In this document: in pieces, positions 3,613 to 62,339 of the stretch
How positions within the stretch are numbered: the stretch's first letter is position 1
Layout of the letters: each line of letters starts with the position of its first letter
Source of the DNA: a virus
Virus record (IMG/VR): IMGVR_UViG_3300025039_000014
Span: 1 to 64,000 of that record
Length of the DNA stretch: 64,000 nucleotides
Reading direction: 5' to 3' (one strand)
Made by a program: the position numbers and the translations under genes
Notes under the pieces: model-generated
Databases searched by the model: none
Seen by the model: the letters and a program-made list of their open reading frames with translations, nothing else
Told to the model about the DNA's origin: nothing

Positions 3613-3633
3613 AGTAAGTCATTACTTACTTAC
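3613..3633. promoter_or_regulatory. GTAAG-palindrome operator copy
   Basis: AGTAAGTCATTACTTACTTAC just after TATACT (3601-3606). Confidence 0.8.
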
Positions 3634-4906: not shown

Positions 4907-5457
4907 CCCAGGCGGCACCCTCTAGCTCCATGGGGTGCTTTGGGAGCGCAGTGACATTCAATCCTGCCTCCCAAGCCTGCCGCTCCTGCTCCCGCATTAG
5001 CGAATGTCACTCACTCGCCCTTGCATCGACTCGGGTGATTCGCCCAGGGGCGAGAGCCACTTTCCTTGCTATCGAATACGCCATGCCGGACCTCGACGAG
5101 TCGTTGATCGACCTGATTCAACGCTCGCCAGTTTCCGATCAGATCAAGGGTATGGCCTATCGACTGCATCAACAGGGTTTTCGCGTGGAAGACGCCAGAT
5201 TGCAACTGTTGCAAGGCGTCAACCCGTTGACTCCCTACCGCACACGCACCGCCGCGATCCGCATTTTCGATTCCCTGATAGCAAAAACCCACTCACGCAA
5301 GGCCGACCTGGTTCAGATGCTGATCGATGACCAAGGCGTCAGTCGCTCGGCGGCCAGCGTTGAAGTGAGCCGCGCCCTGGCGCTGGGTGGATTGTTTGGC
5401 TGGATCGACGTGTCGCGCTTCACCGTAACGCTCAATATCGAGGCACGAGAACCATGA
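4903..5457 (+). CDS. hypothetical protein with N-terminal Cys cluster
   Basis: CFG...CRSC...C; ATGA coupling on both sides. Confidence 0.7.
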   Translation: MTQAAPSSSMGCFGSAVTFNPASQACRSCSRISECHSLALASTRVIRPGARATFLAIEYAMPDLDESLIDLIQRSPVSDQIKGMAYRLHQQGFRVEDARLQLLQGVNPLTPYRTRTAAIRIFDSLIAKTHSRKADLVQMLIDDQGVSRSAASVEVSRALALGGLFGWIDVSRFTVTLNIEAREP

Positions 5458-8400
5458 TTCTTTTCGGGAGAAGCCATTTCAGCGTAGGCGAAAGTATGCT
5501 CAAGCCGGCCGATATCATCGCGCTGGCTTCGTCGCTTGGATACTCCGCCGCCTGCCTGATGGACACCATGCAGATCAGCGGCATGATCGACTTCTCCAAA
5601 GCGGCCAAGGAGGCTGGCGTCAAGCCACTGATCGGTGTCCGCGTTCGCTGTGTGCCGGACCCGCTGCATCGTAAGCCGAAAAAAGGTGAGACCCATGAGG
5701 ACAAGCCTAATCCCGAGACGTTTCACGATGTCATCATCAAAAACGATGCAGGTCTCGGCGATATCTTCGAACTGCTGTCGCGGGCCTATTCCAGCCAGTA
5801 TTTCTACTATCGTGCCCGAGTCGGATTCGCAGACCTGGAAGAGGTCATTCAGCGCGGCAACCTGGTATCGCTCAACAGTGACGCTATGAGCGTGTTTCAC
5901 ACTCCGCACTATGACGACATCGCTTCACAGCTTCCCAGCGCTCAGAACGCAGAATTGAGCGTTCTAGCGATCCAACCGATCGAGACTCCTTATTACGATC
6001 AGCACAGCGCACGCGTGCTGGCGTATGCAGAGAAACACGACCTGCCGGTGATCGCTTATCTGCCGTGTTTTTACCTCGAGGGACAAGCCGACAGTCGCGA
6101 CATCTACCGCGTGATCGCTGAAAACTCGACCATCGATAATACCTTCGTCAAGAAGCCTTTTGCCCGCGATCTGCATCCGAAACGGGTCTGTGAATTGGCC
6201 GATGCACTCAAGGCATTCAGCCAGCGCATGGACCTCAAGGTCTCGAGCCAGATGCTGCGTCATCATCAGGTGATCGAGGACGCGGTCACGTATGAGTGGC
6301 ACAAGCTGCCGATCTCGCTGCCCAAGCTCTGCGATGACGAGGATGCCGAACTCGTGCGTCTGGCCAAGATCGGCTTCAAGGAGCGATTCTCCAAGCCGGT
6401 CATGGGCCACAAGCCCGACACGACGGAACTCCCCCTCTATCGCGACCGCCTGGCCTATGAGCTGTCGGTGCTGAAAACGATGGGCTTTGCCGGCTACTTC
6501 CTTCTGGTTCGTGACCTCGTCACCTGGTCCAAGGAGAGCGGCATTCTTGTTGGCCCCGGCCGCGGATCGGTCGGCGGATCGCTGGTGTCGTATCTACTCG
6601 GCATCACCGATGTCGACCCCATCCGCTTCGACCTGCTGTTCGAGCGATTCATCAACCCGGATCGACTCGATCTGCCCGACATCGACCTCGACTTCATGTC
6701 GTCGCGGCGCGGCGAGATCGTGATCTACCTGCGCGAGAAGTATGGCGCGGATCGTGTCGCCGGCATCACCAACTACTCGCAGCTCGGCTGCGCATCTGCC
6801 TTGCGCGACGTGGGGCGTGTTCACGGCCTGTCGATGTTCGATCTGGCCGTCTCCAAGAAGATCCCCGATGACGTGACACTCGAACAGGCTCGCGAGGCGG
6901 TGCCGGAGATCGAGAGCTATGCCAGCGCCAATCCTGATCTGTGGCGCCACTCCATCGCGCTCACCGGGGCGATGCGCTCATTCGGACAGCACGCCGCCGG
7001 TGTCATCGTCGGGGGTCAGCCGCTGATCAAGATGGCCGTCATCGAGTCGCGAACCCTCGATCCAGTGGTCAACTGGGACAAGCGCGTCTGCGAAGACATG
7101 GGCATGGTCAAGTTGGACGTCCTGGGACTTTCCAACCTGGACGTCATCCAACAGACCGTCGAGCGCGTGAAGGCACGCAAGGGCAAAGACCTCGACCTAC
7201 TCGACGTGTCGCTCGATCTGCCGGACGTGCTGGAGGCGTTCTCGCTGGGTCAAACCACTGCGGTCTTCCAGTTCGAAAGCGGCGGCATGAAGGGCTTGCT
7301 CAAAGACCTGGCGTTCATCGGCTGCCTGAACTTCGAAAACCTCGTCGCGGCGTCGGCGCTCTATCGTCCGGGTCCAATGGAATCCGGCATGCTCGAGACC
7401 TACGTCAACGTGACAAAGGGATTCGAAGCGCCCACCTATCCTCACCCGAAACTGGTGCCCGCGCTGGAGAAGACCCAAGGCGTTTTCATCTTTCAGGAGA
7501 ACGTCATGCAGGCCGCCCAGGCGTTGGCCGGATTCACCATGGCCGAAGCTGACGCGCTGCGCTCCGCGATGGGCAAGAAAGACGCCGTAAAAATGGCCAA
7601 GTCGCGTGATCTTTGGGTCGACGGCTGCATGCGCGAATCCGGCATGGAAGAGGAAGCTGCTGCCGATCTGTTCGACAAGATCGAGAAGTTCGCCGGCTAC
7701 GGCTTCAACCGTTCGCATTCCGTCGAATACACCATTTTGAGCTACTGGACCATGTTCTTGAAGGTCCGCCACCCCGCAGAATTCTTCGCCTCCTGTCTTT
7801 CCGTCATGGACTCCGACCGCATCCCCGGCCTCGTCGCGGATGCCTCAAAGCGAGGTATTTCCATTGGCCCGCCCGACATCAACACATCGACCGACCGCTA
7901 CGAGATTTATACCGATCCCACCACCGGAAGGGACACGCTGGTCGCCCCGCTCAATGCCGTCGCCAACATCAGCGACAAGGGTGCAAGAGCGATTATGGAG
8001 GCGCGAGAGACGGCCGGGGGATCGTTCACCGACCGAGACCAATTCTCGATGGCGGTCAACCGCCGGATCGTGAACGTGCGTGTCGTGCGCCATCTCGATC
8101 TCGTCGGTGCATTCGCATCGATCGAGCCCGGCACACCGTCGGCCACGGATTCCTCACGTCTCAAAGACCAGCTCACGCTGATGCCTGGCGTGCTCCAGAA
8201 GGTCGCCACCATCGAGCGCGACATGACCATCGACAAGTCGGTCGAGGCACGTCTTCTGAGCGTGGTGAACGACTACAGCCGTCACTATCACGACCGCTGG
8301 ACCAGCGTTCCGAAGATCGGCAAGCGGGCAAAGATCATGGTGATCTTCGACGCTCCGCTCTGGAGCGACGAGATCGAGGGAAAGTTGCTATCCGGCAAGC

Positions 8401-8783
8401 CCTATTTGTCGTGGACGACCGCCGCGCATCGCCTGGGTCTGGATCACGCCGACGTCTACTACACCACCCTCATGAAATTCGTGAAGGAGAAGGACGGTCA
8501 GTTCGAGACGACTGACATCGGCAAGTGCTCGGAATACCTGCTGCGCGAGATCGACGTGCTGAACCCGCCGGTGATCGTGACGATGGGCTCGCTTGTCACC
8601 CGTCTGGTCGCCGATGACAGCAAGAAGAAACCCGCTGAACTCGCTGGCAAAAGCATCTACGACCCGAAGAACGATCGCACCGTCATCTACGGATTCAACC
8701 AGGGAATGCTGTTCTTCAAACCCGAGATGACCGTTGACCTCGAGGGCTGCATTCGCAAGGCCATCGAAGCCGCTGGACTCTGA
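5454..8783 (+). CDS. dnaE: DNA polymerase III alpha subunit with C-terminal UDG-like domain
   Basis: PHP domain, GPGRGS, FERFINPDRLDLPDIDLDF, KLDVLGL, KFAGYGFNRSH. Confidence 0.95.
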   Translation: MILFGRSHFSVGESMLKPADIIALASSLGYSAACLMDTMQISGMIDFSKAAKEAGVKPLIGVRVRCVPDPLHRKPKKGETHEDKPNPETFHDVIIKNDAGLGDIFELLSRAYSSQYFYYRARVGFADLEEVIQRGNLVSLNSDAMSVFHTPHYDDIASQLPSAQNAELSVLAIQPIETPYYDQHSARVLAYAEKHDLPVIAYLPCFYLEGQADSRDIYRVIAENSTIDNTFVKKPFARDLHPKRVCELADALKAFSQRMDLKVSSQMLRHHQVIEDAVTYEWHKLPISLPKLCDDEDAELVRLAKIGFKERFSKPVMGHKPDTTELPLYRDRLAYELSVLKTMGFAGYFLLVRDLVTWSKESGILVGPGRGSVGGSLVSYLLGITDVDPIRFDLLFERFINPDRLDLPDIDLDFMSSRRGEIVIYLREKYGADRVAGITNYSQLGCASALRDVGRVHGLSMFDLAVSKKIPDDVTLEQAREAVPEIESYASANPDLWRHSIALTGAMRSFGQHAAGVIVGGQPLIKMAVIESRTLDPVVNWDKRVCEDMGMVKLDVLGLSNLDVIQQTVERVKARKGKDLDLLDVSLDLPDVLEAFSLGQTTAVFQFESGGMKGLLKDLAFIGCLNFENLVAASALYRPGPMESGMLETYVNVTKGFEAPTYPHPKLVPALEKTQGVFIFQENVMQAAQALAGFTMAEADALRSAMGKKDAVKMAKSRDLWVDGCMRESGMEEEAAADLFDKIEKFAGYGFNRSHSVEYTILSYWTMFLKVRHPAEFFASCLSVMDSDRIPGLVADASKRGISIGPPDINTSTDRYEIYTDPTTGRDTLVAPLNAVANISDKGARAIMEARETAGGSFTDRDQFSMAVNRRIVNVRVVRHLDLVGAFASIEPGTPSATDSSRLKDQLTLMPGVLQKVATIERDMTIDKSVEARLLSVVNDYSRHYHDRWTSVPKIGKRAKIMVIFDAPLWSDEIEGKLLSGKPYLSWTTAAHRLGLDHADVYYTTLMKFVKEKDGQFETTDIGKCSEYLLREIDVLNPPVIVTMGSLVTRLVADDSKKKPAELAGKSIYDPKNDRTVIYGFNQGMLFFKPEMTVDLEGCIRKAIEAAGL

Positions 8784-26357: not shown

Positions 26358-26483
26358 AGCTAACGTTATAAAGGGCGATAACATGGTGATGAAATGCGTA
26401 GAGGGCATCGCTGTTATCGCCCTTCTGCTTCTGGCTTCCGCGGATTGGGAGCCTCTTATCCAACTACTGACCGCGAGTCTCTG

Positions 26484-27548
26484 ATGAGCAACGTCGATGA
26501 CGTCTACCTGGCGGTTGCCCGCCGCATCCTGAACAACGGGCACGAGAAGAGCGATCGCACCGGCACCGGCACGACCAGTGCCTTTGGCGAGTCAATGGTA
26601 TTCAGTCTGATCGCCGGTGAAATGCCGCTGCTGACCACCAAGAAGCTGGTCTTGCGCTCGATCATTCATGAGCTGATCTGGTTTCTGCGTGGCGAGGGTA
26701 ATATCCAATACCTGCGCGATAAAAATGTGGGTATCTGGGACGCGTGGGCTGATGAAAATGGCGATCTAGGGCCGGTCTACGGCGTCCAGTGGCGTCACTG
26801 GCAGGACACTCGCGTCATCGACGATACCCAAGTCGAGGCGTTCAAGGATCGCGGCTTCACGATCGAGGGTGAGATCGCCCAGGCCAAGACCATGACGGGG
26901 CGCTACGTCGCCACCCGAGAGATCGACCAGATTCAGGACGTGCTGAATCAGCTGCGCACCAACCCGGACTCCCGGCGCATCATCCTGACCGCCTGGAATC
27001 CGGCGGTCATCGAAGAGCAGGCGTTGCCGCCCTGCCACTCCTTCATTCAGTTCTACACCCACGAGCTCGACTGCACCCAGCGACAGGTGATCGCTCTGGA
27101 ACGCATCAAGCACGCCATGAACGCCGGCTACGAGCTCAACACCATGCAGCACGCGCTGCTGACGGCGCTCCAGCAAGACAACCTCGACGAGAAGTTGCTG
27201 GACGACCTGGTGCCGAAGCGGGCGCTGTCGTGCCACTTGTATCAGCGCAGCGGTGACTTCTTCCTGGGTGTGCCCTTCAACATCGCCAGCTACGCCCTGC
27301 TGACGCACATGATTGCGGCTTGCGTCGGCATGGAGGCGTTCGAGCTGGTTCATACGATCGGCGACGGCCATCTCTACTCAAATCACCGAGACCAGATCGA
27401 GGAGCAGTTGAAGCGCTGCGCCATCCCCGGCACGACGACGGTTCGTTTCCTGCGCACAGCTTCCGATCCCGGCGAGTTCGCCTTCGAGGACATCGAGATC
27501 ATCGGCTACAACAGCCACCCGCCGATCAAGGCGCCTATCTCTGTTTGA
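26484..27548 (+). CDS. thyA: thymidylate synthase
   Basis: DRTGTGT, LGPVYG, LPPCH, QRSGD..LGVPFN, HLYSNH. Confidence 0.95.
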
Positions 27549-30567: not shown

Positions 30568-31023
30568 ATGATGACGCTCCCGACCTTCGAATACCCCGCC
30601 AAATCGCCCACTGAGACACTACTATCCCACCCGCCACAGCTAGCGCGGTGTGGCGTCTCAGGCTTCCCTTCGCCCGCCGAGGATTACCAGGGCGACAGGC
30701 TCGATCTTACCCGCTATTTCATCAAGCACCCTGCCGCCTCGTTCTTCATGACGGTCGTTGGTGATTCGATGCGCGAGTTCGGCATCATGGATGGCTCGAA
30801 AGTGCTGGTTGATCGAGCGGTGAAGGCCCGTGCCGGTCTGATCGCGGTGATCCTGATCGACGGGGAGATCGTGGTTAAATCGCTGGAGAAGCGGGCCGGG
30901 GTGCTGTGCCTGTGCAGCGGTGGCGATCGCTACCCGCCCATCCCCGCATCGACGATCGATGAGGGTGAGTCCTATGGCGTGGTGACTTCCGTTCACACCC
31001 AGCTCTACGCCCACCCGTCATGA
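30568..31023 (+). CDS. umuD: DNA polymerase V subunit UmuD
   Basis: [16 protein letters not shown]. Confidence 0.92.
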
Positions 31024-32300
31024 TCGGCATCGCAGACTGCAACAACTTCTACTGCTCGTGCGAAAGGGTATTTGACCCCTCGCTGCGCGGCCGGCCCGTT
31101 GGTGTCCTCTCGAATAACGATGGTTGTGTCGTTGCTCGGTCGAATGAGCTCAAAGCGCTGGGGGTGCCGATGGGCGCACCGGCGTTTCAGTTGCGTGATC
31201 AGGTTCGTCGCGGCGAGATCGTGCTGAAATCGTCCAACTACGAGCTCTATGGGGATCTCAGCCAGCGGGTGCAGACGATCCTCGCCGATCACTCGGCTGG
31301 GATAGAGCCGTATTCAATCGACGAATGTTTCCTGATGCTGGACGGCTTCGCCCCGGAAACCCTGGAAAGGCACTGTATTGACTTGAAGGCGCAAGTTCGC
31401 CAATGGACCGGCATTCCGATCTCCATCGGGGTGGCGCCAAGCCGGACCCTAGCCAAACTCGCCAACCGCCTGTCCAAGAAGATTGCCGCATTCGAGGGTG
31501 TCTGCGTGCTGGAGAAAGACAGCCAGGCGCTCAAGCAGGTTCTCGAGCGCACCGATCTCGATGATATCTGGGGCATCGCCCGCCGACAGCGCGACAAGCT
31601 CCACCGCATCAACGTGTTCAACGCCCTCGATCTGGCCCGCGTCGACCTGAAAACGATCCAGCGCCAATTCGGGGTGGTAATGGAAAGGACCGTGCTGGAG
31701 CTGCGCGGGATTCCGGCGATCGAGATGAATGACCACGACGAGCCGAAACAGCGGATCATGACCTCGAGGTCGTTCGGGCAATCGACGAGTGACAGGGGTG
31801 AAGTCGCCGCGGCGCTCACGAAGCATGGCCAGCGCGGTGCCGAGAAACTGAGACAGCAAGAGAGCACGGCGCGGGCGGTGATGGTGTTCATTCAGACCGA
31901 TCGTTTCCGCCAAGACCTGCCGCAGTATTCGCAGAGCACGGTGATCGGTCTCGACCGGCCATCCTGCGACTCGCGGGTGATCCTGGCCGCCGTGAAGATA
32001 GGGTTCAATTCGATCTGGCGGGACGGCTATCGCTACAAGAAGGCTGGCGTGATGATGCTCGATCTGCGCGATACCAACCGGGCACAGCTATCGCTGCTGG
32101 ACGAGTCGGAACACGCCACACGCGACGAGAAATCCCAGCGGCTGATGTCGACGCTGGACGAGCTCAACCAGAAGATGGGGCGCGGAACAGTCAATTTCGG
32201 TCTCCCCTCGAAGAACGCGCCATGGAAACTCAAGGCTGACAGTCGATCGCCGAGATGGACGACGCGCTGGGACGAGATACCCCGCGTGCGGGCAGGATGA
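31020..32300 (+). CDS. umuC: DNA polymerase V subunit UmuC
   Basis: [30 protein letters not shown]. Confidence 0.95.
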
Positions 32301-47250: not shown

Positions 47251-47271
47251 ATAAGTCAATGGTTACTTACC
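47251..47271. promoter_or_regulatory. GTAAG-palindrome operator copy
   Basis: ATAAGTCAATGGTTACTTACC. Confidence 0.65.
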
Positions 47272-48508: not shown

Positions 48509-48568
48509 TTTCGTGAAAGGTTAGCTATCAACACGTAGAGCGCATCGCCGAGATAATGACCATAGCCA

Positions 48569-48638
48569 AGGGTCTCTCCCGCTCAGGCTAAGGGTCTCTC
48601 TTCGCCAGGCTACCGAGGGGTCTTTTTCTCGCAGGCTA
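48569..48638 (+). repeat. three tandem 22 bp repeats RGGGTCT-N8-CAGGCTA
   Basis: units at 48569, 48591 and 48617. Confidence 0.8.
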
Positions 48639-49063
48639 CCAGCACTCACCAAAACGACTCACCGTGGTGGAAATCTCCCATAAAGCGCCATCTGACGGGT
48701 CGACCAGGATCTCACTGTGGTCCTCTCACCGGGGGTGACGTGTCGAACTCGCCCTGCCGCTCACTGACCTTGAGAGCGTGATTCCCGCCCTACCACTGCC
48801 AGTGTCACCCGCTCGCCTGCACACCACGGTCACAGCCACCCAGAATCGCCCCAGGAGCCATTCTCCACTCGGAACCGGGCTTGGTGCTGTCTTGCCATGG
48901 GGAAAGGGAGACGGGGCTGTCTGGGGCTCGTCTGACCGAGGGTAACGCTGACCAGCACCAGGATTGACTGCCGGGATGACGAATTGACGGTGATCGCCAC
49001 GCAACCGACTCACCATGGGGAAAGGGAAACGGGTCCGGTGAGAATCCGGGTGCCACGGTCACA

Positions 49064-49186
49064 GGGAAAGGCTGGCGATCCACTGCTCTCGGTGAGAACC
49101 AAGGTCACTGGGAACGGGAAAGGCTGGCGATCCAACCGGGAACGGGAAAGGCTGGCTTTGCATTTTTGGGAAAGGCTGGCGATCCA
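49064..49186 (+). repeat. 19 bp direct repeats GGGAAAGGCTGGCGATCCA x3 at 52 bp period, plus one partial copy
   Basis: copies at 49064, 49116 and 49168; 13 bp partial at 49144. Confidence 0.9.
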
Positions 49187-49605
49187 TAGACCGTGGTGGA
49201 TAGCCGTGGTGCGGGGTGCTGCCAGCCGCGATTTTTGGCGGCGGCGACGTTGCCACGACGGGTTTTTGCCGCTGGTTACTTTGCCACCCAACGATTTTGT
49301 GGCTAACGACTTGGTGATGTTTTCGCCAGCCTGCTAATGATTAGCCACCCAATCGTTTCTTTGCTGGTCAATCCTCCGGTTCGTTCGCGTCATATCCATT
49401 AGCAGCATACGCGTTAATTCTAAGCGTGATTTGCTCGGGGAAATCAATCTTTTTTTGGTCAAATTCCCTCATAGCGGGAATTTATAGGGTGTTTACGCGT
49501 CATAGTTTTATTTGTGTTTACGCGTTAACAGTAAATCGATAATCTGGATACGTGCTCAAGACGAAGCACACAAAAAAAAGTCTCTCTCTCATTAAGGAAA
49601 TCATC

Positions 49606-50238
49606 ATGAAAATCACAGCTAACGATCGCACTATTGCTACTAACTCCAACGAAAAGAAAGTTTCGTTGTCTGAAAAATTCAATCTTGTCAAGACGCACGT
49701 TTCTTCTCTTGCTATCACGTCTAAGCAAACGAAGATTAAGGAGACGCAAAGCGCAATTATCGACGCATCCAAAAAGCGCGTCGAGAACTACGAAGCGAAA
49801 GCGCAGCGCAACGAAACAGACTATCGCGAATTAACAGTCGAAGTGACTCACGCAAAATATAACGCGTCGTTGCTCGACTTGGACGCAAAAGCGATGAAAT
49901 ACACTATCGACAAGAACATCAATCTCGCATCCGCTGTTAATGAGTCGCGCGAATATAAGAAACGTCTCAAGTCGTTTTTGGAAGCGTGCGCGAACAACGA
50001 CGCATCCAAACTCGACAAAGCGCTAGCGAAGCTACAAGCGCACATGAAAGCGTCCAGCGCATCCGCTATCACTGTCGCGCAAGTCGCGACAATCATGGAA
50101 CACAGCACGACGACGCAAGCGAGCTACTTTAAGAAATTCGCGACAATCCTCGGAGTTGTATCGTCCGAACGCTCTAATCAGTCTCCTATGACAATCAATA
50201 AAGAAAGCGATGTTTATAAAGACTTCGTTTCACTCTAA
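49606..50238 (+). CDS. hypothetical protein (possible C-terminal wHTH), in the GGB-free island
   Basis: TAAGGA RBS; 210 aa with only one Gly and one Pro. Confidence 0.8.
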   Translation: MKITANDRTIATNSNEKKVSLSEKFNLVKTHVSSLAITSKQTKIKETQSAIIDASKKRVENYEAKAQRNETDYRELTVEVTHAKYNASLLDLDAKAMKYTIDKNINLASAVNESREYKKRLKSFLEACANNDASKLDKALAKLQAHMKASSASAITVAQVATIMEHSTTTQASYFKKFATILGVVSSERSNQSPMTINKESDVYKDFVSL

Positions 50239-50251
50239 TTGATCGACACAT

Positions 50252-50277
50252 AAGCGCACTCCTTAGAGTGCGCTTTC
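50252..50277 (+). terminator. hairpin/terminator
   Basis: AAGCGCACTC-CTTA-GAGTGCGCTT-TC. Confidence 0.65.
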
Positions 50278-50303
50278 TCACTGGATTCCGAGGACAATTC
50301 GAC

Positions 50304-50609
50304 ATGATTAAATTCATTATCCGCAATAACACAAAGCGCTTTTACAATGCGCACGCTGTCGCGCAAGTCGACGCGCAGATGATAAACACTCGCATCGTCT
50401 ACTTCGTTCGCGCTGGATATATCATCGACACGAAAGCGCATCCATCATGCGCAGACTTTGAGCGTCAGCACGTCGCAACATATGCGACACGACAGGATGC
50501 GGAACACGCAGCGTATGACGCAATTGACGGAATCGCTAACGAAGTCGACTTCGACGTGATCGAAGCGTATTTTTATCGCTATCATGTCCAGCAATTCAAA
50601 GCAGCGTAG
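50304..50609 (+). CDS. hypothetical protein, in the GGB-free island
   Basis: GAGGA RBS; 101 aa. Confidence 0.7.
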   Translation: MIKFIIRNNTKRFYNAHAVAQVDAQMINTRIVYFVRAGYIIDTKAHPSCADFERQHVATYATRQDAEHAAYDAIDGIANEVDFDVIEAYFYRYHVQQFKAA

Positions 50610-51063
50610 CGCGTCCAGCAGCGCGCAGAGAGCGCGTTAACGTCAATCCGCTGTCATGATATGGATTCGATGTTAGCGCGTCTCTGAGGACGAAATAGAG
50701 CGATTGAGGATTAGCTAATGAAAGCGAGGACGATGGAGACATTAGGACGACATGAATTAGCAAAGTCTTAGAAATTCCCGACTTAGTGGCTGGGCATAGC
50801 CGCCTCAATTTCCCATTCCCGGCACTCCCCTTATACCACCAGGCCCCAGCCCCAGAGCCCCGCCCTTATACCACCGGCTACGAGTTCCCCGCGTCCCAAG
50901 CGTCCCCGCATCCCGAGTCCGACCGCCTGCCGTGAATCACCGAGCCCCATCGCCACCCCTGACCGACGTGAACCCGTGCCTTATACGACCGCGACCACCC
51001 GGCGTTGCCGGCAGTCTCAGCCCGCTCACAAGCCCTGGGCGTTGCCAGGGCTCCAAGTCGACC

Positions 51064-51510
51064 CTAGCTCCCTTCTCTAACGATCTTTTGAGGCGTAATT
51101 CCGCACCAGGTGTTCAAGCCCACCAAGTCTGCAAGCTCTTCTGCCGTCGACTCGCAGGCTTTCACAGAGGTCGTGGACTTGATCGAAACGTAGCTACCCA
51201 TGAAGGTGATCGACGTCGGGGTAGCTTTGCTCAAATCTTCGTTCATATCTGGCAGCACGACAGCCTCTGTCTTGACGCAGCGAAACTCTGCGTCCGCGTT
51301 AGGCCCTTTCACATCGCCAACTACCTCGGAAAGCTTGGTCGCAATCTCGACGCAATAATCCTCGTCATCCGCGATTTTATCGCCCTGCAAAACCACGTTG
51401 ATAGGTGGCGTATCGTCAAAAGCGTGGTGCCCTACTATTGTCCATCGAAAATCGGCAAGCGCCGTCGATGAAAAGAGCAAGGTGCTCGCGGCGATTAAAA
51501 ACAACTTCAT
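51064..51510 (-). CDS. exported Cys-containing protein
   Basis: signal peptide MKLFLIAASTLLFSSTALA; 4 Cys. Confidence 0.75.
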   Translation of the reverse strand: MKLFLIAASTLLFSSTALADFRWTIVGHHAFDDTPPINVVLQGDKIADDEDYCVEIATKLSEVVGDVKGPNADAEFRCVKTEAVVLPDMNEDLSKATPTSITFMGSYVSIKSTTSVKACESTAEELADLVGLNTWCGITPQKIVREGS

Positions 51511-51610: not shown

Positions 51611-52933
<1,323 letters not shown>

Positions 52934-55734: not shown

Positions 55735-55786
55735 CTTTAATGCGGGAAAAAATGTCCACGCGTAAGTATAAGTGAAGACTAACACG

Positions 55787-56452
55787 ATGAGCGAAATCCA
55801 GAAAGTAGACCCTCGGGAACTCCGCAAAAATTCTTGGAATACCAACAAGATGACGGCGGAAAACGAGGAAAAGCTGAGAACCAGCGTCCGGCGCAATGGC
55901 TTGCTCGGCGTGGTGCTGGTTCGAGAGCTGAAAGACGGCTCTATGGAGATCGTCGGCGGCGAACACCGCGTCGATATCGCTATCGAGGACGGTCAGTCAA
56001 CGGTCAACGTCCAAAACCTGGGCAAGATCAGCGATGCTCGCGCCAAGGAAATGATGCTGCTGGACAACGGCCGCTACGGACAGGATGACCCATTCGAACT
56101 GGCCGGCATTCTGGACGAGCTCGCCGCCGGCGGCGACGTGGATCTCTCCACCTTCATGCCCTTCGCCAGCGAGGACATGGACAAGCTGCTAAGCACCACC
56201 GACATCGACCTCGACAGTCTCGATTACCTCGACGAGCCGGACTACACCGGCGTCGAAGTCACCACCGAGAAGCGTGAGTCGAAAGTCCAGTCGCATCAGG
56301 TGCTGCGCTTCAAGGTCACGATGGACGACGCCGCGGCCGTGAAGCGCGTGATCGACAAGATCATGGAGTCACGGGGCTTCACCGAAGAGGACTCGCTGAC
56401 CAACGCCGGTGATGCCCTGGTCTACCTGGCGGGGGAATACGCCAATGAGTAA
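55787..56452 (+). CDS. ParB/Srx N-terminal domain protein 1
   Basis: NSWNTN, EIVGGEHR, DN. Confidence 0.85.
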   Translation: MSEIQKVDPRELRKNSWNTNKMTAENEEKLRTSVRRNGLLGVVLVRELKDGSMEIVGGEHRVDIAIEDGQSTVNVQNLGKISDARAKEMMLLDNGRYGQDDPFELAGILDELAAGGDVDLSTFMPFASEDMDKLLSTTDIDLDSLDYLDEPDYTGVEVTTEKRESKVQSHQVLRFKVTMDDAAAVKRVIDKIMESRGFTEEDSLTNAGDALVYLAGEYANE

Positions 56453-57119
56453 CGACCGCGGCGGCCAGGAGATCGTCTACCTCGATCCCAAGACCCTTAT
56501 TCCCTACGAGAACAACGTCAAGCGCCACCCGCGCAAGCACATCGAGGCGCTGAAAGCTCTGATGCTGCGTCACGGCTTCTCGAAGGGAAACCCCATCCAG
56601 GTCGACCGCAACATGGTCATCATCGCTGGACACGGCCGCACGGAAGCCGCGTGCGAGCTTGAGATGCCGGTGGTGCCGGTTGTCATCCGTTCGGACCTGT
56701 CCGACGACGAGGTGAAGCGCTGGCGTCTGGAAGAGAACAAGTCGGTCTCCAACGACTACGACGTGGTCGGCATGAAGGCCGAGATTGCCGATCTACTGGA
56801 TCTCGATGGGCCGTTGGTCGGCTTCGACGAGAAAGAGTGGGCGGTGCTGACCGAAGACCTCACGGCTGACTTCGATGCCGACTCGATGATCGCCGATCTC
56901 GAGGCCGAGATGGAATCCGCCGCGAAGCATCACGACGAGACCACCGAGAAGGCTCGCACCGAACAGGTGGCGATCACCGATCTTCTGGGATTCCGGCATG
57001 TGCCGGCGGCGCAGCAGCGCAAGATCGTCAAGTTCGTGGCGCGCCTCGAAGCTGAAACCGGCAAGACCGGCGCTGATGCCTTCCTGGCTCACATCGATCA
57101 GAGCGAGGGCGCGGCATGA
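56445..57119 (+). CDS. ParB/Srx N-terminal domain protein 2
   Basis: LIPYENN.K.H, IIAGHGR, RLEENK. Confidence 0.88.
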   Translation: MSNDRGGQEIVYLDPKTLIPYENNVKRHPRKHIEALKALMLRHGFSKGNPIQVDRNMVIIAGHGRTEAACELEMPVVPVVIRSDLSDDEVKRWRLEENKSVSNDYDVVGMKAEIADLLDLDGPLVGFDEKEWAVLTEDLTADFDADSMIADLEAEMESAAKHHDETTEKARTEQVAITDLLGFRHVPAAQQRKIVKFVARLEAETGKTGADAFLAHIDQSEGAA

Positions 57120-57754
57120 GCGACATCGTCATCGACAAGCGATTCAGCTCCCGCGTGACGCGCACCGATCGTGTGCTCGAAGTGGCCGAAGCCTTCGGGC
57201 TGGGCCTTGAGGATCGCGAGTTCGTGATCTACGACCAGCTGTCCGTCCAGGTCGAGCGTGGTGATGTCGTCTACATCAACGGGCAGTCCGGTTCCGGCAA
57301 GTCGTTGGCGCTGCGCGAGATCGCTCGCCAGTTGGCCGACCAGGGCATGCGCGTCGCCAACATCGACGAGATCGCCCTGGAAGACGTCCCGTTGATCGAT
57401 CAGATCGGCACCGACACCAACGACGCGGTTCGCCTGCTGTCGCTGGCTGGGCTCAACGATGCCTATCTGCTGGTGCGATCCCCTGCCGAGCTTTCCGATG
57501 GTCAGAAATATCGCTTCCGGCTGGCCAAGGTCATCGAGTCCGGCGCCGACGTGTGGGTCGCCGACGAGTTCTGCGCGGTCTTGGATCGCGAAACCGCAAA
57601 GGTCGTCTCGTTCAACGTCCAGCGCACGGCACGCAAGGCTGGCGCCACGGTGATCGTGGCCACCACCCATACCGACTTGGTAGAAGACCTCAAGCCAAGT
57701 CTGGTGATCGAGAAGTATTACAAGGCCAAAGTCAGCATGGAGAGACCCGCATGA
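57116..57754 (+). CDS. stand-alone ABC-type ATPase
   Basis: GQSGSGKS, LSDGQ, ADEF, ATTH; no permease gene nearby. Confidence 0.88.
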   Translation: MSDIVIDKRFSSRVTRTDRVLEVAEAFGLGLEDREFVIYDQLSVQVERGDVVYINGQSGSGKSLALREIARQLADQGMRVANIDEIALEDVPLIDQIGTDTNDAVRLLSLAGLNDAYLLVRSPAELSDGQKYRFRLAKVIESGADVWVADEFCAVLDRETAKVVSFNVQRTARKAGATVIVATTHTDLVEDLKPSLVIEKYYKAKVSMERPA

Positions 57755-58230
57755 GTGATGCTTCGACAACAGACGGACCCGCTACCGATACCTCTACGGT
57801 CGACCATGCGAAGACCATTCAGATCGTCGAGAAGCGCTGCAAGAAGCACGGTGTGGCGATCGTCACGATCCAGCCGTTCAGTGCGCGCCTGTTCGTGTTC
57901 AGAGGTCTCGATACCTACAGCGACAAGCTCAAGGCGATCTTCGGCGTCGAGACGCAGATGGGCTGCATCCTGCAAGACCTGAACGTCGGTGGTTTCTTCG
58001 GCTCCGAGTTGGACGTCAACGGCTGCCCGATTCTGGTGCTGGCGATCGATGGCACGACGAAATACCCGGAAGAAGCCATCTGGCACGAAGCGCTGCACGC
58101 GACCTTCGTCATCCTGGACCTCTACGGGGTCGAGTTCGACGTCGATAACCACGAAATCTACACCTACACCCAGGGCTACATCGTCAGTCAGATTCGCCAG
58201 CAACTCTACGGGCGAGAGTCGTTTCGATGA
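57751..58230 (+). CDS. HExxH zincin-like protein
   Basis: WHEALHA...NHE. Confidence 0.65.
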   Translation: MSDASTTDGPATDTSTVDHAKTIQIVEKRCKKHGVAIVTIQPFSARLFVFRGLDTYSDKLKAIFGVETQMGCILQDLNVGGFFGSELDVNGCPILVLAIDGTTKYPEEAIWHEALHATFVILDLYGVEFDVDNHEIYTYTQGYIVSQIRQQLYGRESFR

Positions 58231-59132
58231 TCCCGAATGACGTCGCGATCCGCCGGCCGGCCGCCTCTGAGTGGTCGGAGGGCTTCTCGTTGCTGTCGCG
58301 AATGGTCCTCGAGCGCGGCACCCGCGAAGACTGGCTGGCGCTGCACGATCTTCACTACAAGACCGAGACTGACTCCTTCGGCCAGACCTACTACCGCTGC
58401 ACGCTCGACGGCACGCTGATCGGCGTGGTCGTCACGGCCTACCCGAAGCTGTTGCTGGAACCGCGTCATCGCATGTTCCCGAAGATCAAGCCGACCGGCG
58501 GCTCCAAGCTCACCAATACGGCGCGGGCGAAGTTCGTGAATGACCTGTTCGCGATCGTCAACCGCTCGGTCGTTGACACGCTCTACCGCGGTGTCGGCGT
58601 CTCCTATCGGATGCTCAACCTGGCCGCCCGGATGCATCCACGCCAGGTGGTGGAGATCCAATCGGCCATGTCGAAATTCTCGCCCTTCGCCATGAAGGCA
58701 GGGTTCCTCTTCGCCAAGCCGATCCCGAACAAGAACTACGCCAAAGGCGTAGCGATGGTCACTCGTTTCTTCGATAGCCATCCGATGGACACCGTCGGCC
58801 TGCTCGAAGAGATCGACGCCATGCCGGACTCGCTCAAGCTCAAGACCCTGCGTGAGCTCACGGCGTTCTATTACAAGTGCTCGGCGCTTGAGAAGACCGG
58901 TCGCAACCTGGGTCGCGGCCTGGCTGACCTGGATTACGAGCCTGCCGAGCTGATCGCCAAGATTCAGGGACTGATCTTCGCCTCCCCGCTCTATGGCGCC
59001 TATCGCAATCCTGACTTTGGCCGTGCGCTGCCCGACCGGCTACCGCTGGCCGCGTTCGATCTCCAAAGTCCCAACGAACCGCTGAACCTCGCTGCCCTGG
59101 AAACCCTGATTGGAAGCGTCCCCGATGAGTGA
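58227..59132 (+). CDS. GNAT-fold transferase, candidate DNA base-modifying enzyme
   Basis: L..LHY, R.VVDTLYRGVG (acyl-CoA motif A), AMSKFSPF..KAG. Confidence 0.75.
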   Translation: MIPNDVAIRRPAASEWSEGFSLLSRMVLERGTREDWLALHDLHYKTETDSFGQTYYRCTLDGTLIGVVVTAYPKLLLEPRHRMFPKIKPTGGSKLTNTARAKFVNDLFAIVNRSVVDTLYRGVGVSYRMLNLAARMHPRQVVEIQSAMSKFSPFAMKAGFLFAKPIPNKNYAKGVAMVTRFFDSHPMDTVGLLEEIDAMPDSLKLKTLRELTAFYYKCSALEKTGRNLGRGLADLDYEPAELIAKIQGLIFASPLYGAYRNPDFGRALPDRLPLAAFDLQSPNEPLNLAALETLIGSVPDE

Positions 59133-59418
59133 ATACCGCATGACCCAGAAGCAGCTCCAGATCATCACCGCGATCCACGAGCACCAGAAGAACCACAAGC
59201 AGGACATCGACCTGGATCAGCTGCTGGGCTCTCTGCCCTACGAGACGACCAAGGAATCGATGCAGTTCAGCCTGCGAGCCCTGATCAAGAAGGGTCTGCT
59301 GGCGAAGGTAGGCGACGCCGTGATTCGTCGTGGACGGGCTCGTCGGACCTATCGGCTGACGCTGATGGCCAAGGAAATGTTCCGGCTGGGGTCAGAAAAA
59401 TCACACACACCAGCTTAA
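59125..59418 (+). CDS. winged-helix DNA-binding protein
   Basis: MTQKQLQII...SLRALIKKGLL...RGRARRTYRLT. Confidence 0.75.
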   Translation: MSEYRMTQKQLQIITAIHEHQKNHKQDIDLDQLLGSLPYETTKESMQFSLRALIKKGLLAKVGDAVIRRGRARRTYRLTLMAKEMFRLGSEKSHTPA

Positions 59419-60459: not shown

Positions 60460-61104
60460 ATGAGCGACACGAAGACTGCACGAAAGCGAATGTCTCCGAG
60501 CCAGTGGGCAGAAGCGCGTGCGATGTGGGCGTCGGGCGAGTTCACGCTGGAACAGATCGCCGAGAAATACGGCGTCGCCCGCGAAACCCTGTCGCGCCGG
60601 TTCGCCAAGGACGGGGTCAAGAAGGGTCAGAGCCAGATCGATCGCAAGGTCGAGCAGGAGCTGATCGAGAAAGCCGTCCAGGCTGCCGACAAGTGGGCGG
60701 AGCGCGGCGAACAAGCCCGCGAATCGTTCTTCAAGATGAACAAGATGGTCGTCGCGCTGACCGGCAAGGTCTTGCAAGACGCGATCGCCGGGGGCAAGGG
60801 GCTCTACACCGCCCAGGCCGACCTCAAGGCACTCCAGATGACATCGATCATTCTGGAGAAGACTCGGGCGAATCAGTGGGCCGTCGTGGGTCTCGACAAG
60901 GAAACCGACAACGACGACGAAATCCCCCAGCTGCTGGTGCGCACGCTGACCCCGGATCAGGTCGTCGAACTCCAGCGCATGCAGCATCAGGTAACGCCGG
61001 AAGACGAGATCGAGGTCGGCGACGCCGAACCCTACCTCGAAGACATCGATGTTCTCGATGACGAAGACGACGATGCGGTTATCGTCGAAGAGGCCGACGA
61101 CTAA
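60460..61104 (+). CDS. terS: terminase small subunit
   Basis: N-terminal HTH (TLEQIAEKYGVARETLSRR); TAATG-coupled to terL. Confidence 0.8.
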   Translation: MSDTKTARKRMSPSQWAEARAMWASGEFTLEQIAEKYGVARETLSRRFAKDGVKKGQSQIDRKVEQELIEKAVQAADKWAERGEQARESFFKMNKMVVALTGKVLQDAIAGGKGLYTAQADLKALQMTSIILEKTRANQWAVVGLDKETDNDDEIPQLLVRTLTPDQVVELQRMQHQVTPEDEIEVGDAEPYLEDIDVLDDEDDDAVIVEEADD

Positions 61105-62339
61105 TGGCCGCCGTCATCGATCTCAGCCTTCACGACAAGCAGATGGAAGTCTTCTCCGACCCGGCGCGATTCAAGGTCGTCGTGGCCGGCCGGCGCTGGG
61201 GCAAGTCTCGTCTGTCGCTGACCTCGATGCTGCGCGCCGCCCGGATGCCCCGCTCTCGGGTCTGGTATATCGCGCCGACCTTCCGCATGGCCAAGCAGAT
61301 CATGTGGGACGAGCTGCTGGAGATGATCCCCAAGCAGTGGGTCAGGAAGACCAACCACTCGACCCTTACGGTGGTGCTCAAGAACAAGACCGAAATCTCG
61401 CTCAAGGGTGCCGACCGCCCCGATACCCTGCGCGGTGTCGCGCTGAACTACGTGGTCCTCGACGAATTTCAGGACATGAAGGCCGACGTCTGGGTCAAGG
61501 TGCTTCGCCCGACGCTGTCGTCAACCGGCGGACACGCACTGATCATCGGCACCCCGAAGGCGTTCAACTACCTCTACGAGCTGTGGAAGCTCGGTCAGGA
61601 TGGCCGCTCGAAGCAGTGGAAGTCCTGGCAGTTCGAAACCGCCTCATCGCCCTTCATCCCGGCATCCGAAATCGAAGCAGCCCGCGAGGACATGGACCCC
61701 AAGTCGTTCGCACAGGAATACCTGGCGAGCTTCGCCACCATGTCGGGCCGAGTCTACTACCCGTTCGATCGCATGGAGCATGTCGGCACCTATGCGTTCA
61801 ACCCCGCCCTGCCGATCTGGGTGGGCCAGGATTTCAACATCGACCCGATGTCCTCGGTGGTCATGCAGCCGCAGAGCAACGGCGATATCTGGATCGTCGA
61901 CGAGATGATTTTGCCATCCTCGAATACGGCCGAAGTGTGTGACGAGCTGGAGCGCAAGTTCTGGCGCTGGCAGTCCAATTTGACGGTTTACCCCGATCCA
62001 GCCGGAGGCCAGCGCCAACACGCCCGCGGCGAAACCGATATGGACATCTTTCGGGAACGCGGCTTCAAGCGGCTCAAATACAAGCGCCGGCACCCGGCGA
62101 TCGCCGACCGCGTCAACGCGGTCAACTCGATGCTGATGAGTGCATCCGGCCAGGTTCGCCTGCGCGTGGACGCGAGCTGCCGTCAAACGATCTCGGCCTT
62201 CGAACAGACGCTTTACAAGCCAGGCAGTCGGGACATCGACAAGGCCGCCGGTGTGGAGCACCCGGCCGATGCGCTGGGCTACTGCATCGACCTCGAACGT
62301 CCGGTGCGGAAATTCAAGCCGATGGGCGCTTCTTTCTGA
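61104..62339 (+). CDS. terL: terminase large subunit
   Basis: AGRRWGKS, VVLDE, IGTP, GQDFN, H..DA..Y. Confidence 0.93.
   Translation: MAAVIDLSLHDKQMEVFSDPARFKVVVAGRRWGKSRLSLTSMLRAARMPRSRVWYIAPTFRMAKQIMWDELLEMIPKQWVRKTNHSTLTVVLKNKTEISLKGADRPDTLRGVALNYVVLDEFQDMKADVWVKVLRPTLSSTGGHALIIGTPKAFNYLYELWKLGQDGRSKQWKSWQFETASSPFIPASEIEAAREDMDPKSFAQEYLASFATMSGRVYYPFDRMEHVGTYAFNPALPIWVGQDFNIDPMSSVVMQPQSNGDIWIVDEMILPSSNTAEVCDELERKFWRWQSNLTVYPDPAGGQRQHARGETDMDIFRERGFKRLKYKRRHPAIADRVNAVNSMLMSASGQVRLRVDASCRQTISAFEQTLYKPGSRDIDKAAGVEHPADALGYCIDLERPVRKFKPMGASF

Follow-up and report, generated by a model that had tools for sequence, protein, structure and literature searches.

The window analysed here, positions 1 to 64,000 of the IMG/VR virus record IMGVR_UViG_3300025039_000014, harbours at 49489-50776 a two-gene island from which a three-letter DNA word, GGB on one strand or VCC on the other, is missing. 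This absence is real, absolute and local. The complete record comprises 104,759 bp with 57.8% GC, and Pfam scans identify it as a large tailed phage. The island, its two open reading frames (ORFs) and its flanks are laid out as follows, with positions given in the window.

48520..49488: left flank of about 970 bp, with no convincing gene on repeat search and reading of the sequence; plus strand rich in G-runs
within 48520..49488: left-flank boxes GGGAAAGGCTGGCGATCCA (3-4 copies) and GGGGAAAGGGA
49475..49486: left arm of an inverted repeat, CGGGAATTTATA (12 nt), bracketing the island with the right arm
49515..49543, plus strand: sigma70-like promoter candidate TGTTTA-N17-GATAAT, read from the sequence, with a duplicated GTGTTTACGCGT box upstream
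49606..50238, plus strand: ORF1, 210 amino acids, the conserved cargo of the island
50254..50279, plus strand: hairpin GCGCACTC-CTTA-GAGTGCGC followed by TTTCTC, terminator- or attenuator-like, between ORF1 and ORF2
50304..50609, plus strand: ORF2, 101 amino acids, start codon ATG at 50304
50761..50773, plus strand: conserved boundary motif CAAAGTCTTAGAA at the right island edge
50769..50780: right arm of the inverted repeat, TAGAAATTCCCG, 92% complementary to 49475-49486
50781..51060: right flank of about 280 bp, non-coding; plus strand rich in C-runs
50828, 50863 and 50979: CCCTTATACCACC-type boxes of the right flank, which also holds a conserved CATAGCCGCC box; alignment shows the boxes to be kept across genera

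As read from the sequence, the island is a complete unit consisting of a sigma70-like promoter, ORF1, a terminator-like hairpin and ORF2, in keeping with the self-contained cassette proposed by the first-pass annotation, which had only the letters to go on. The promoter candidate was found by reading and is absent from the output of a simple promoter scanner; the island of the related phage nickie has TTGCAC-N16-TAGAAT at the equivalent place. The hairpin 3′ of ORF1 has equivalents in nickie and in a 106-kb relative (L002), and about 170 bp of non-coding DNA follow ORF2, closing with CAAAGTCTTAGAA.

Absence of GGB and VCC from the island

The GGB/VCC-free gap extends over 1,289 bp, from 49488 to 50777. 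The first-pass annotation had read 49491-50778 as lacking all six trinucleotides of the word, and counting bears this out: GGC, GGG, GGT, ACC, CCC and GCC each occur 0 times, against about 140 occurrences expected across the island span at the rate seen elsewhere in the genome (ACC/GGT 44, CCC/GGG 34 and GCC/GGC 62). Its figure of about 19 GGA stands at exactly 19, and its figure of about 16 TCC is corrected to 16-17; taken together, GGA and TCC number 35, where 36 are expected. The runner-up GGB/VCC-free gap is much shorter, at 72 bp within the window and 112 bp genome-wide. Trinucleotide counting over the whole replicon, a check suggested beforehand, finds the depletion to be unique to the island, and in a scan of all reverse-complement-closed 2-, 3- and 4-mers the island is the sole abnormal gap, and only for words that contain GGB/VCC. 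Each strand of the island lacks the word, the antisense strand in the window having 0 occurrences versus about 70 expected. The GC content of the island is 46%, compared with 58% for the genome.

The avoidance is obeyed by the non-coding parts and by all reading frames of the island, coding and non-coding DNA alike, as had been claimed. Common restriction palindromes persist, as had also been listed (GTCGAC 2, GATC 3, AGCGCT 2, GTTAAC 2, ACGCGT 3 and TCGCGA 3 copies). In the island ORFs, GCC accounts for none of the 43 Ala codons (48% of Ala codons elsewhere in the phage) and ACC for none of the 23 Thr codons (60% elsewhere), and the proteins themselves are affected, with Gly at 0.96% versus 6.8% in other phage genes, Pro at 0.64% versus 4.1% and Trp missing. 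The composition count of ORF1 agrees with the single Gly and single Pro first noticed there and adds that it has no Trp, which ORF2 lacks as well. Because non-coding DNA and all frames obey the rule and codons are recoded, the constraint acts on nucleic acid and not on protein. A further peculiarity of codon usage is that CTG is used for none of the 15 Leu codons of the island ORFs (49606-50609) versus 51% in other phage genes, despite containing no banned word; GTG is rare in these ORFs too (2/21).

Chance, an assembly artefact and a simple insert of foreign composition were considered and rejected, given the zero count against the expectation, the retention of the trait in relatives and the recoded codons. 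Full-text literature searches returned no description of GG/CC-free or GGB-free islands or of phage proteins free of Gly, Pro and Trp, and blastn of the island against a phage collection gave no match. A factor that reads the short word is implied, with the phage's own DNA-marking system perhaps a candidate.

Related islands and their edges

A tblastn search with ORF1 detects five sequenced Nickievirus phages of Pseudomonas syringae at 28-35% identity. Their homologous locus is entirely free of GG and CC for 1.08-1.14 kb and of GGB/VCC for 1.13-1.44 kb; in the 7-16 kb stretches examined, the second-longest gaps without GG/CC are about 100-170 bp. Their ORF1 and ORF2 proteins are devoid of Gly, Pro and Trp. 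The five islands differ pairwise by 14-44%, or 151-438 substitutions; a change creating GG or CC was possible at 82-225 of the substituted sites per pair, and 0 occurred (P 1e-15 to 1e-44). These alignments indicate that purifying selection maintains the absence of the word. Avoidance that is absolute over so large a divergence implies that each site is harmful in most infections, which fits an enzyme acting per site.

The remaining relatives, from metagenomes and IMG/VR, form a graded series. GG/CC is wholly absent from L016; L011 resembles the window, and L013 nearly does, with 3-4 VCC left on the sense strand. L010 and L002 miss GGB almost solely on the sense strand: VCC is partly tolerated in L010, and L002 has 3 GGB versus about 45 VCC on the sense strand in 1.3 kb. 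L012, L014 and L015 carry ORF1 homologues in DNA without depletion. Wherever depletion occurs, it is sense-strand GGB, equivalent to template-strand VCC, that is absent or near-absent, and the word-free length of the sense strand is nearly constant in six genomes (1.29-1.44 kb), although ORF2 differs among them. At the left margin of the nickie island (L003 7584-7885), the plus strand is already GG-free and CC is present, in a stretch with a small annotated minus-strand ORF.

A chromosomal copy in Halomonas sulfidaeris (L001 / G001:C1:1903900-1915900) belongs to a decaying prophage of the same family. Its ORF1 homologue is interrupted by stop codons, the GNAT-like gene beside the island copy is also broken, stops or frameshifts disrupting the two genes, and the word is only partly depleted, an erosion expected from relaxed selection in a dead prophage. 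The Rhizobium phage RHEph10 has the helicase/ParB synteny of the window and is GG-free on the sense strand over 1.06 kb; its island, in which an ORF1 homologue is not detectable, has five GG/CC in about 1.15 kb and ends at AAGTCTTAGA. Counts at orthologous loci in SSU5-like elements, also suggested at the outset, give a divided answer: Nickievirus, RHEph10, L011, L013 and L016 are depleted, but SSU5 is so only about 3-fold, over 1.1 kb, and the undepleted loci of L012, L014 and L015 stand on the other side. In the 24 kb examined of Stenotrophomonas phage ANB28, the GG/CC-free tract is only 175-245 bp long, and the 25 kb beside the helicase of the Escherichia coli phage-plasmid CMS-2020a contain no comparable island.

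The trait follows a phage superfamily across Halomonas, Pseudomonas and Rhizobium rather than a host, its members sharing the synteny of the island with the helicase/ParB operon, and its span of three host genera argues for a phage-borne agent and not a host factor. The banned word comes in dialects, GG in the Pseudomonas and Rhizobium phages and GGB, with GGA fully tolerated, in the Halomonas clade; the GGA-tolerant dialect implies that the reader inspects the base 3′ of GG. What the window adds is this three-letter dialect, a graded clade in which the sense strand comes first and a connection between erosion of the trait and prophage decay.

The edges of the island are conserved as well. The islands of the window, Nickievirus and RHEph10 all terminate at a conserved motif, AAGTCTTAG. 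The right-edge motif, whose core AAAGTCTTAG has a single copy in this genome, lies at the same edge in the five Nickievirus genomes, L010 and RHEph10. Alignment reveals an invariant core AAGxCxTAG (AAAGTCTTAG in most), followed after about 20 nt by a TAT(T/A)G(C/G)CGCC box and then by at least two CCCTTAYAC boxes, and these elements are conserved between phages whose ORF1 identity is 28%. Such conservation of a non-coding edge points to a site used by a conserved phage protein, which could serve packaging, end formation, replication or loading of a ParB-like protein, for example. Both flanks are C-rich when read outward from the island and G-rich when read inward, in mirror polarity, and the 1.1 kb to the left hold 28 G-runs (of at least three) versus 14 C-runs. 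A box related to the left arm CGGGAATTTATA, AATTCCCTATA, occurs in the left flank of nickie and of Nican01.

The left-flank repeat (49064-49186) has GCTGGCGA three times on the plus strand, in the orientation that would be read by a RecBCD-type enzyme arriving from the island. This word occurs 626 times in the H. sulfidaeris genome versus about 198 for the reversed control word; it may be a Chi-like site, but the observation is suggestive only.

Island proteins, candidate operon and replicon

Neither ORF1 nor ORF2 matches a family in Pfam, PHROG or NCBIfam. A database search with ORF1 yields 22 homologues, from Halomonas/Vreelandella and marine metagenomes, the closest (P0002-P0004) at 79-86% identity, and the host is therefore probably a Halomonas relative. 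No match was obtained by tblastn of ORF1 against plasmids, and 342 Halomonadaceae genomes contain a single copy of the locus, the decayed one of H. sulfidaeris. A profile search of 1.8 billion representatives returned 34 clusters; Gly, Pro and Trp are all absent in 11 of 33 remote clusters, and three more have no Gly but 1-3 Pro. In a quick tree of the clusters, the Gly/Pro/Trp-free state is scattered and needs at least five changes.

An AlphaFold (AF2) model of ORF1, built from 18 homologues with a pLDDT of 88.6, comprises an N-terminal three-helix bundle and a small alpha/beta C-terminal domain resembling a winged helix. Foldseek searches of PDB and BFVD gave nothing significant (E of at least 0.1), the weak matches (E 0.25-1.4) being MarR-type regulators, the T4 MotA activation domain and RepL/replication-initiator proteins. 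The ESM Atlas offers winged-helix neighbours at low TM, including SelB winged-helix domains (TM 0.39), and VIA-align matches the generic N-terminal helix bundle alone (Z <9). That ORF1 might be a DNA-binding winged-helix protein is a lead, not a finding.

ORF2 is an orphan, with no homologue in the database search. A gene of its size nevertheless occupies the same position within each genus (L002 versus L010, 40% identity; window versus L010, 21%, E 0.008; Nickievirus copies among themselves, 48-94%), and on these grounds ORF2 is considered real and fast-evolving. Profile-profile comparison finds no similarity between ORF2 of the Halomonas type and that of Nickievirus, and the AF2 model (pLDDT 67.7) is too poor for a fold search.

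Elsewhere, according to the Pfam scans, the genome encodes CobT-like and AAA_5/CbbQ-type AAA+ ATPases, Pol III alpha, gp32, Mre11/Rad50, RecA, ribonucleotide reductase, ThyA, DHFR, UmuD, UmuC, seryl-tRNA synthetase, a superfamily 2 helicase, two ParB-like proteins, an ABC ATPase, DnaB- and DnaG-like proteins and a ligase, together with terminase and portal candidates. Helicase identity is 50% with an E. coli SSU5-like phage-plasmid, 49% with ANB28 and 41% with Nickievirus. Sequence comparison of the helicase and of a 301-residue ORF places the replicon in the SSU5/Nickievirus/RHEph10 superfamily, a kinship with SSU5 that had been suspected from the start. The 301-residue ORF is part of an operon that may encode the agent.

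55772..59418, plus strand: candidate agent operon with two ParB-like proteins, an ABC ATPase, a 159-residue ORF, the GNAT-like 301-residue ORF and a small ORF resembling a winged helix-turn-helix protein
57116-57754, plus strand: ABC ATPase (Pfam ABC_tran, E 3.7e-11; many ABC ATP-binding models)
58227-59132, plus strand: GNAT-like 301-residue ORF, named after its Atlas neighbours
60460-61104: terminase small-subunit candidate, about 1 kb downstream of the operon
61104-62339: terL, following the small-subunit candidate

The ParB-like proteins are assigned by Pfam ParB_N, and no permease gene is seen within the operon of the ABC ATPase. The 301-residue ORF matches nothing in Pfam, NCBIfam or PDB sequences; in the ESM Atlas it lies closest to clusters of GNATs and of ABC_tran+Acetyltransf_1 fusions, most of them viral (scores 0.92-0.97, TM 0.62-0.68), so that the GNAT operon named in the first-pass annotation agrees with these neighbours and lacks a sequence match, and GNAT-like is a soft call. 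Its tblastn matches are 31 phage records, all of the SSU5, Klebsiella, Escherichia, Stenotrophomonas, Xanthomonas, Nickievirus or Rhizobium group, and some relatives are annotated as ‘MK0520, ABC-type ATPase fused to a predicted acyltransferase’. According to a prediction by Iyer and colleagues, an ABC-ATPase+GNAT pair carries out an uncharacterised acylation of a DNA base (PMC7824862). The phage resembles this predicted COG2401/MK0520-type system in having an ABC ATPase and a GNAT-like protein in one operon, as two separate genes. On double-stranded DNA, phage enzymes that modify DNA after replication are activated by ParB homologues (PMC13229309), and a position about 1 kb upstream of the terminase is where genes for a packaging-time mark would be expected.

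The palindrome GTAAGT-N8-ACTTAC occurs in 15 perfect copies genome-wide and its shorter core TAAGT-N8-ACTTA in 22 (for example, at 3614, 11562, 12210, 17003, 25331, 42134, 53000, 55715 and 62348). It looks like a genome-wide operator, preceding most other operons, to which a dimeric protein of the winged-helix type, ORF1 for instance, could bind. As first claimed, the island has no copy (0/22), the nearest being at 47252 and 53001.

Several neighbouring and more distant genes deserve mention. Between the right flank and serS, a 148-residue minus-strand ORF (51064-51510) belongs to no known family and has an N-terminus resembling a signal peptide. A full-length seryl-tRNA synthetase of 427 residues is encoded at 51650-52933 (plus strand), about 870 bp downstream from the island; aminoacyl-tRNA synthetases are unusual in phages of about 100 kb. 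Pol III alpha (5454-8783, plus strand) bears a C-terminal domain of the uracil-DNA-glycosylase superfamily (Pfam UDG, residues 958-1055). The thymidylate-synthase homologue (26394-27548, plus strand) is long (384 residues) and matches its Pfam model in two stretches, which suggests an insertion. At 30568-32300 (plus strand), a UmuD-like S24 peptidase adjoins a UmuC-like Y-family polymerase; among the matches listed, the closest phage relatives of the pair are a Bacillus pumilus phage and Halomonas phage vB_HboP_4908 (57-58% identity), and Nickievirus is not among these. Should parental DNA carry bulky marks, a polymerase capable of lesion bypass would be noteworthy.

Possible readers of the missing word

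We tentatively favour, at less than even confidence, a sharpened version of what the first-pass annotation proposed: a GG-directed mark put on DNA by the phage itself would spare the cassette, which host RNA polymerase could thereby read on the incoming genome. The island would act as an ‘ignition’ cassette, a complete transcription unit for the host enzyme, which purifying selection would keep free of the word recognized by a GG-directed agent of the superfamily acting on DNA. This agent would most likely be a covalent base mark, probably an acyl group, placed at GGB/VCC of progeny DNA by the terminase-side operon of two ParB-like proteins, ABC ATPase and GNAT-like protein. Host RNA polymerase would have difficulty in reading a marked genome on entry, chiefly where the mark is on the template strand; the word-free cassette alone would be expressed at once. 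Its products, ORF1 acting as a DNA-binding factor, would then switch on the remaining programme; the first-pass annotation had suggested a de-modifier, an activator or an anti-defence factor for them. Should the acyl group sit on cytosine, the harmful mark would be that of the template (VCC) strand.

Counted in favour of exemption from the phage's own mark are the absolute and local avoidance, its basis at the level of nucleic acid, the selection, the link with the superfamily, the restriction of the operon to it and a unit that has a sigma70-like promoter and lacks the operator. The constant constraint on sense-strand GGB suggests a template-strand block; the three remote clusters with no Gly but some Pro fit the same grading, and lineages differ in GGB versus GG as would be the case for the specificity of an enzyme. 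Phage Mu Mom is a GNAT-fold enzyme able to acylate a DNA base in a short sequence context. Mom acts on adenine, however, and forces no motif-free gene. In T4, with hydroxymethylcytosine, Alc and endonucleases II and IV, a phage-borne mark separates classes of template for transcription and nucleases, as is proposed here, but the T4 mark licenses its own DNA everywhere, whereas in the present case a small unmarked window would be the licensed part.

A number of points weigh against this explanation. The mark, the base carrying it, the transcription block and the roles of ORF1 and ORF2 are all inferred. The GNAT assignment comes from language-model and predicted-structure neighbours alone, and Pfam scans of about 75 ORFs detect no other modification enzyme. 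SSU5 and ANB28 possess the operon, yet their islands are weak or small, and in the genome G002 the GNAT-like gene is intact (79% identity) and the island is word-free on one strand only. The phage would have to tolerate a mark hindering transcription of nearly its whole genome, an extra assumption. Finally, a mark offers no account of the edge motif, the repeat arrays in the flanks or the constant length of about 1.3 kb, features that fit a physical genome end better.

A wider form of the idea, which we regard as doubtful, holds that the superfamily of phages and phage-plasmids of about 100-120 kb (SSU5, Nickievirus, RHEph10 and the Halomonas types) writes an undescribed GG-word base mark on its packaged DNA with a ParB/ABC-ATPase/GNAT machine. 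Through its density, this mark would leave the incoming genome unreadable or untouchable until the word-free ‘ignition’ cassette unlocks it; the banned word would then report the specificity of the writer, and the sense-strand bias the strand whose mark blocks RNA polymerase.

The main rival, which we consider rather unlikely and which is not mutually exclusive with a mark, is that the island lies at, or is, a terminal repeat or the leading end of the virion DNA, entering the cell alone and first as the pre-early DNA of T5/BF23 does. The avoided word would be the target of a nuclease active at entry, either a host defence, which the first-pass annotation had already named as its alternative, or the phage's own activity against host DNA; ORF1 and ORF2 would neutralise this nuclease or release the second step of entry, and the repeat arrays would be injection-stop or packaging signals. 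T5/BF23 provide the precedent: host defences are effective only when sites lie in the first-step-transfer region, which is in the terminal repeat and bordered by a long repeat-rich non-coding stretch, and how these phages spare their own DNA is unknown (PMC10644984). The island has a similar border (about 970 bp to its left, about 280 bp to its right), and the absence of nuclease sites, decisive in T5/BF23, is proposed to be so here. Both would be small early units for host RNA polymerase, early status being our inference for the island. T5/BF23 and Nican01 are large siphoviruses with terminal repeats (PMC10644984; PMC11256456), Nican01 being classed as ‘DTR (long)’ by PhageTerm, without coordinates (PMC11256456). 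Entry of the island first would also suit the near-constant sense-strand length, the arrays of G- and C-runs bracketing it in mirror polarity, and AAAGTCTTAG with the boxes after it, better conserved than ORF1, as a terminase or packaging site would be.

Other observations oppose a first-entering island. Public records begin at terL and hold it once. The T5 region measures about 10 kb versus 1.3 kb, terminal position and two-step entry are features of T5, and neither island ORF matches a T5 A1, A2 or dmp family. T5 lacks particular 4-7-bp enzyme sites by chance or weak selection, whereas the island excludes a word of 2-3 nt absolutely, at the cost of Gly, Pro and Trp. We know of no host factor that reads a word of 2-3 nt; a host nuclease doing so would have to spare the host's own DNA, and a trait tracking the superfamily across three host genera is not readily explained by a host factor. 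Nor can a nuclease of double-stranded DNA explain the sense-only avoidance of L002, unless two inversely oriented sites are needed.

A self-exemption, in which ORF1, possibly with ORF2, would itself be the GG/CC reader, a silencer or targeting subunit directed against GG-rich host DNA, strikes us as improbable. Its gene would have to lack the word to stay expressed, and the G/C-run arrays of the flanks, saturated with the banned word, would be high-affinity sites. The presence of an ORF1 homologue in every island examined except that of RHEph10, the 11 remote clusters free of Gly, Pro and Trp and the winged-helix-like C-terminal domain are consistent with such a role, but the rest of the phage genome, full of the word, would be hit too, ORF1 loci are undepleted in L012, L014 and L015, RHEph10 does without a detectable ORF1 and the fold matches are weak (E 0.3-1).

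Slightly less credence still can be given to a constraint at the RNA level, whereby the cassette mRNA would avoid GG(B) because an early endoribonuclease or RNA-directed factor cuts or binds the word, or because GG promotes pausing or R-loops. The sense strand is indeed constrained wherever depletion occurs, in L002 essentially alone, and the island coincides with a transcription unit; the antisense strand, however, is equally word-free in the window, L011, L016 and the five Nickievirus phages, and the nickie plus strand stays GG-free through the stretch with the annotated minus-strand ORF.

CC/GG is the protospacer-adjacent motif (PAM) of type I-F CRISPR-Cas. A PAM-free cassette would be untargetable and unsampled for spacers, which would suit an anti-CRISPR locus; the banned dinucleotide of Nickievirus equals this PAM, and a PAM on either strand fits avoidance on two strands. 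We nevertheless hold PAM depletion to be very unlikely, since selection per PAM falls far short of what would keep about 140 sites at zero across 40% divergence, TCC/GGA remain at their expected rate in the window even though Nickievirus has lost all CC/GG, targets elsewhere in the genome would still be lethal, sense-only avoidance is not explained and ORF1 and ORF2 have no known family.

Mutational erosion, in which a context-specific deaminase or hypermutation destroys the word without selection, could account for the lower GC content of the island but can be set aside as scarcely credible, because the expected products are not enriched (AG/CT 144 versus 148 expected, GA/TC 202 versus 205), the ORFs are open, ORF1 is conserved, the edges are sharp and lie at conserved motifs, and GGA/TCC are untouched.

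As in restriction-site avoidance, known for palindromes and for T7 facing type III enzymes, selection has here removed a short word from phage DNA, and the one-strand bias of L002 recalls the evasion of enzymes that need inversely oriented sites. Classical avoidance is nevertheless genome-wide and statistical and concerns 4-8 bp, whereas that of the island is local and absolute and concerns 2-3 nt, the rest of the genome being normal; an asymmetric 3-mer banned over 1.29 kb only, next to persisting palindromes, does not fit the classical case.

The finding implies an early-acting reader of a two- or three-letter DNA word, and to our knowledge phage-host systems offer no known example of such a reader at work early in infection. 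The GGA-tolerant dialect and the strand-graded relatives narrow what this reader recognizes, and the culturable members nickie, Nican01 and RHEph10 make the effect easy to test. Such islands are, moreover, a source of natural proteins that do without Gly, Pro and Trp. Should the reader be a nuclease that the first-entering DNA encounters, the island would address how T5-like phages spare their pre-early DNA. If it is instead the phage's own mark, the island would provide the first phenotype and the sequence specificity for the predicted ABC-ATPase/GNAT acylation of DNA, and would reveal a new way of timing phage gene expression.

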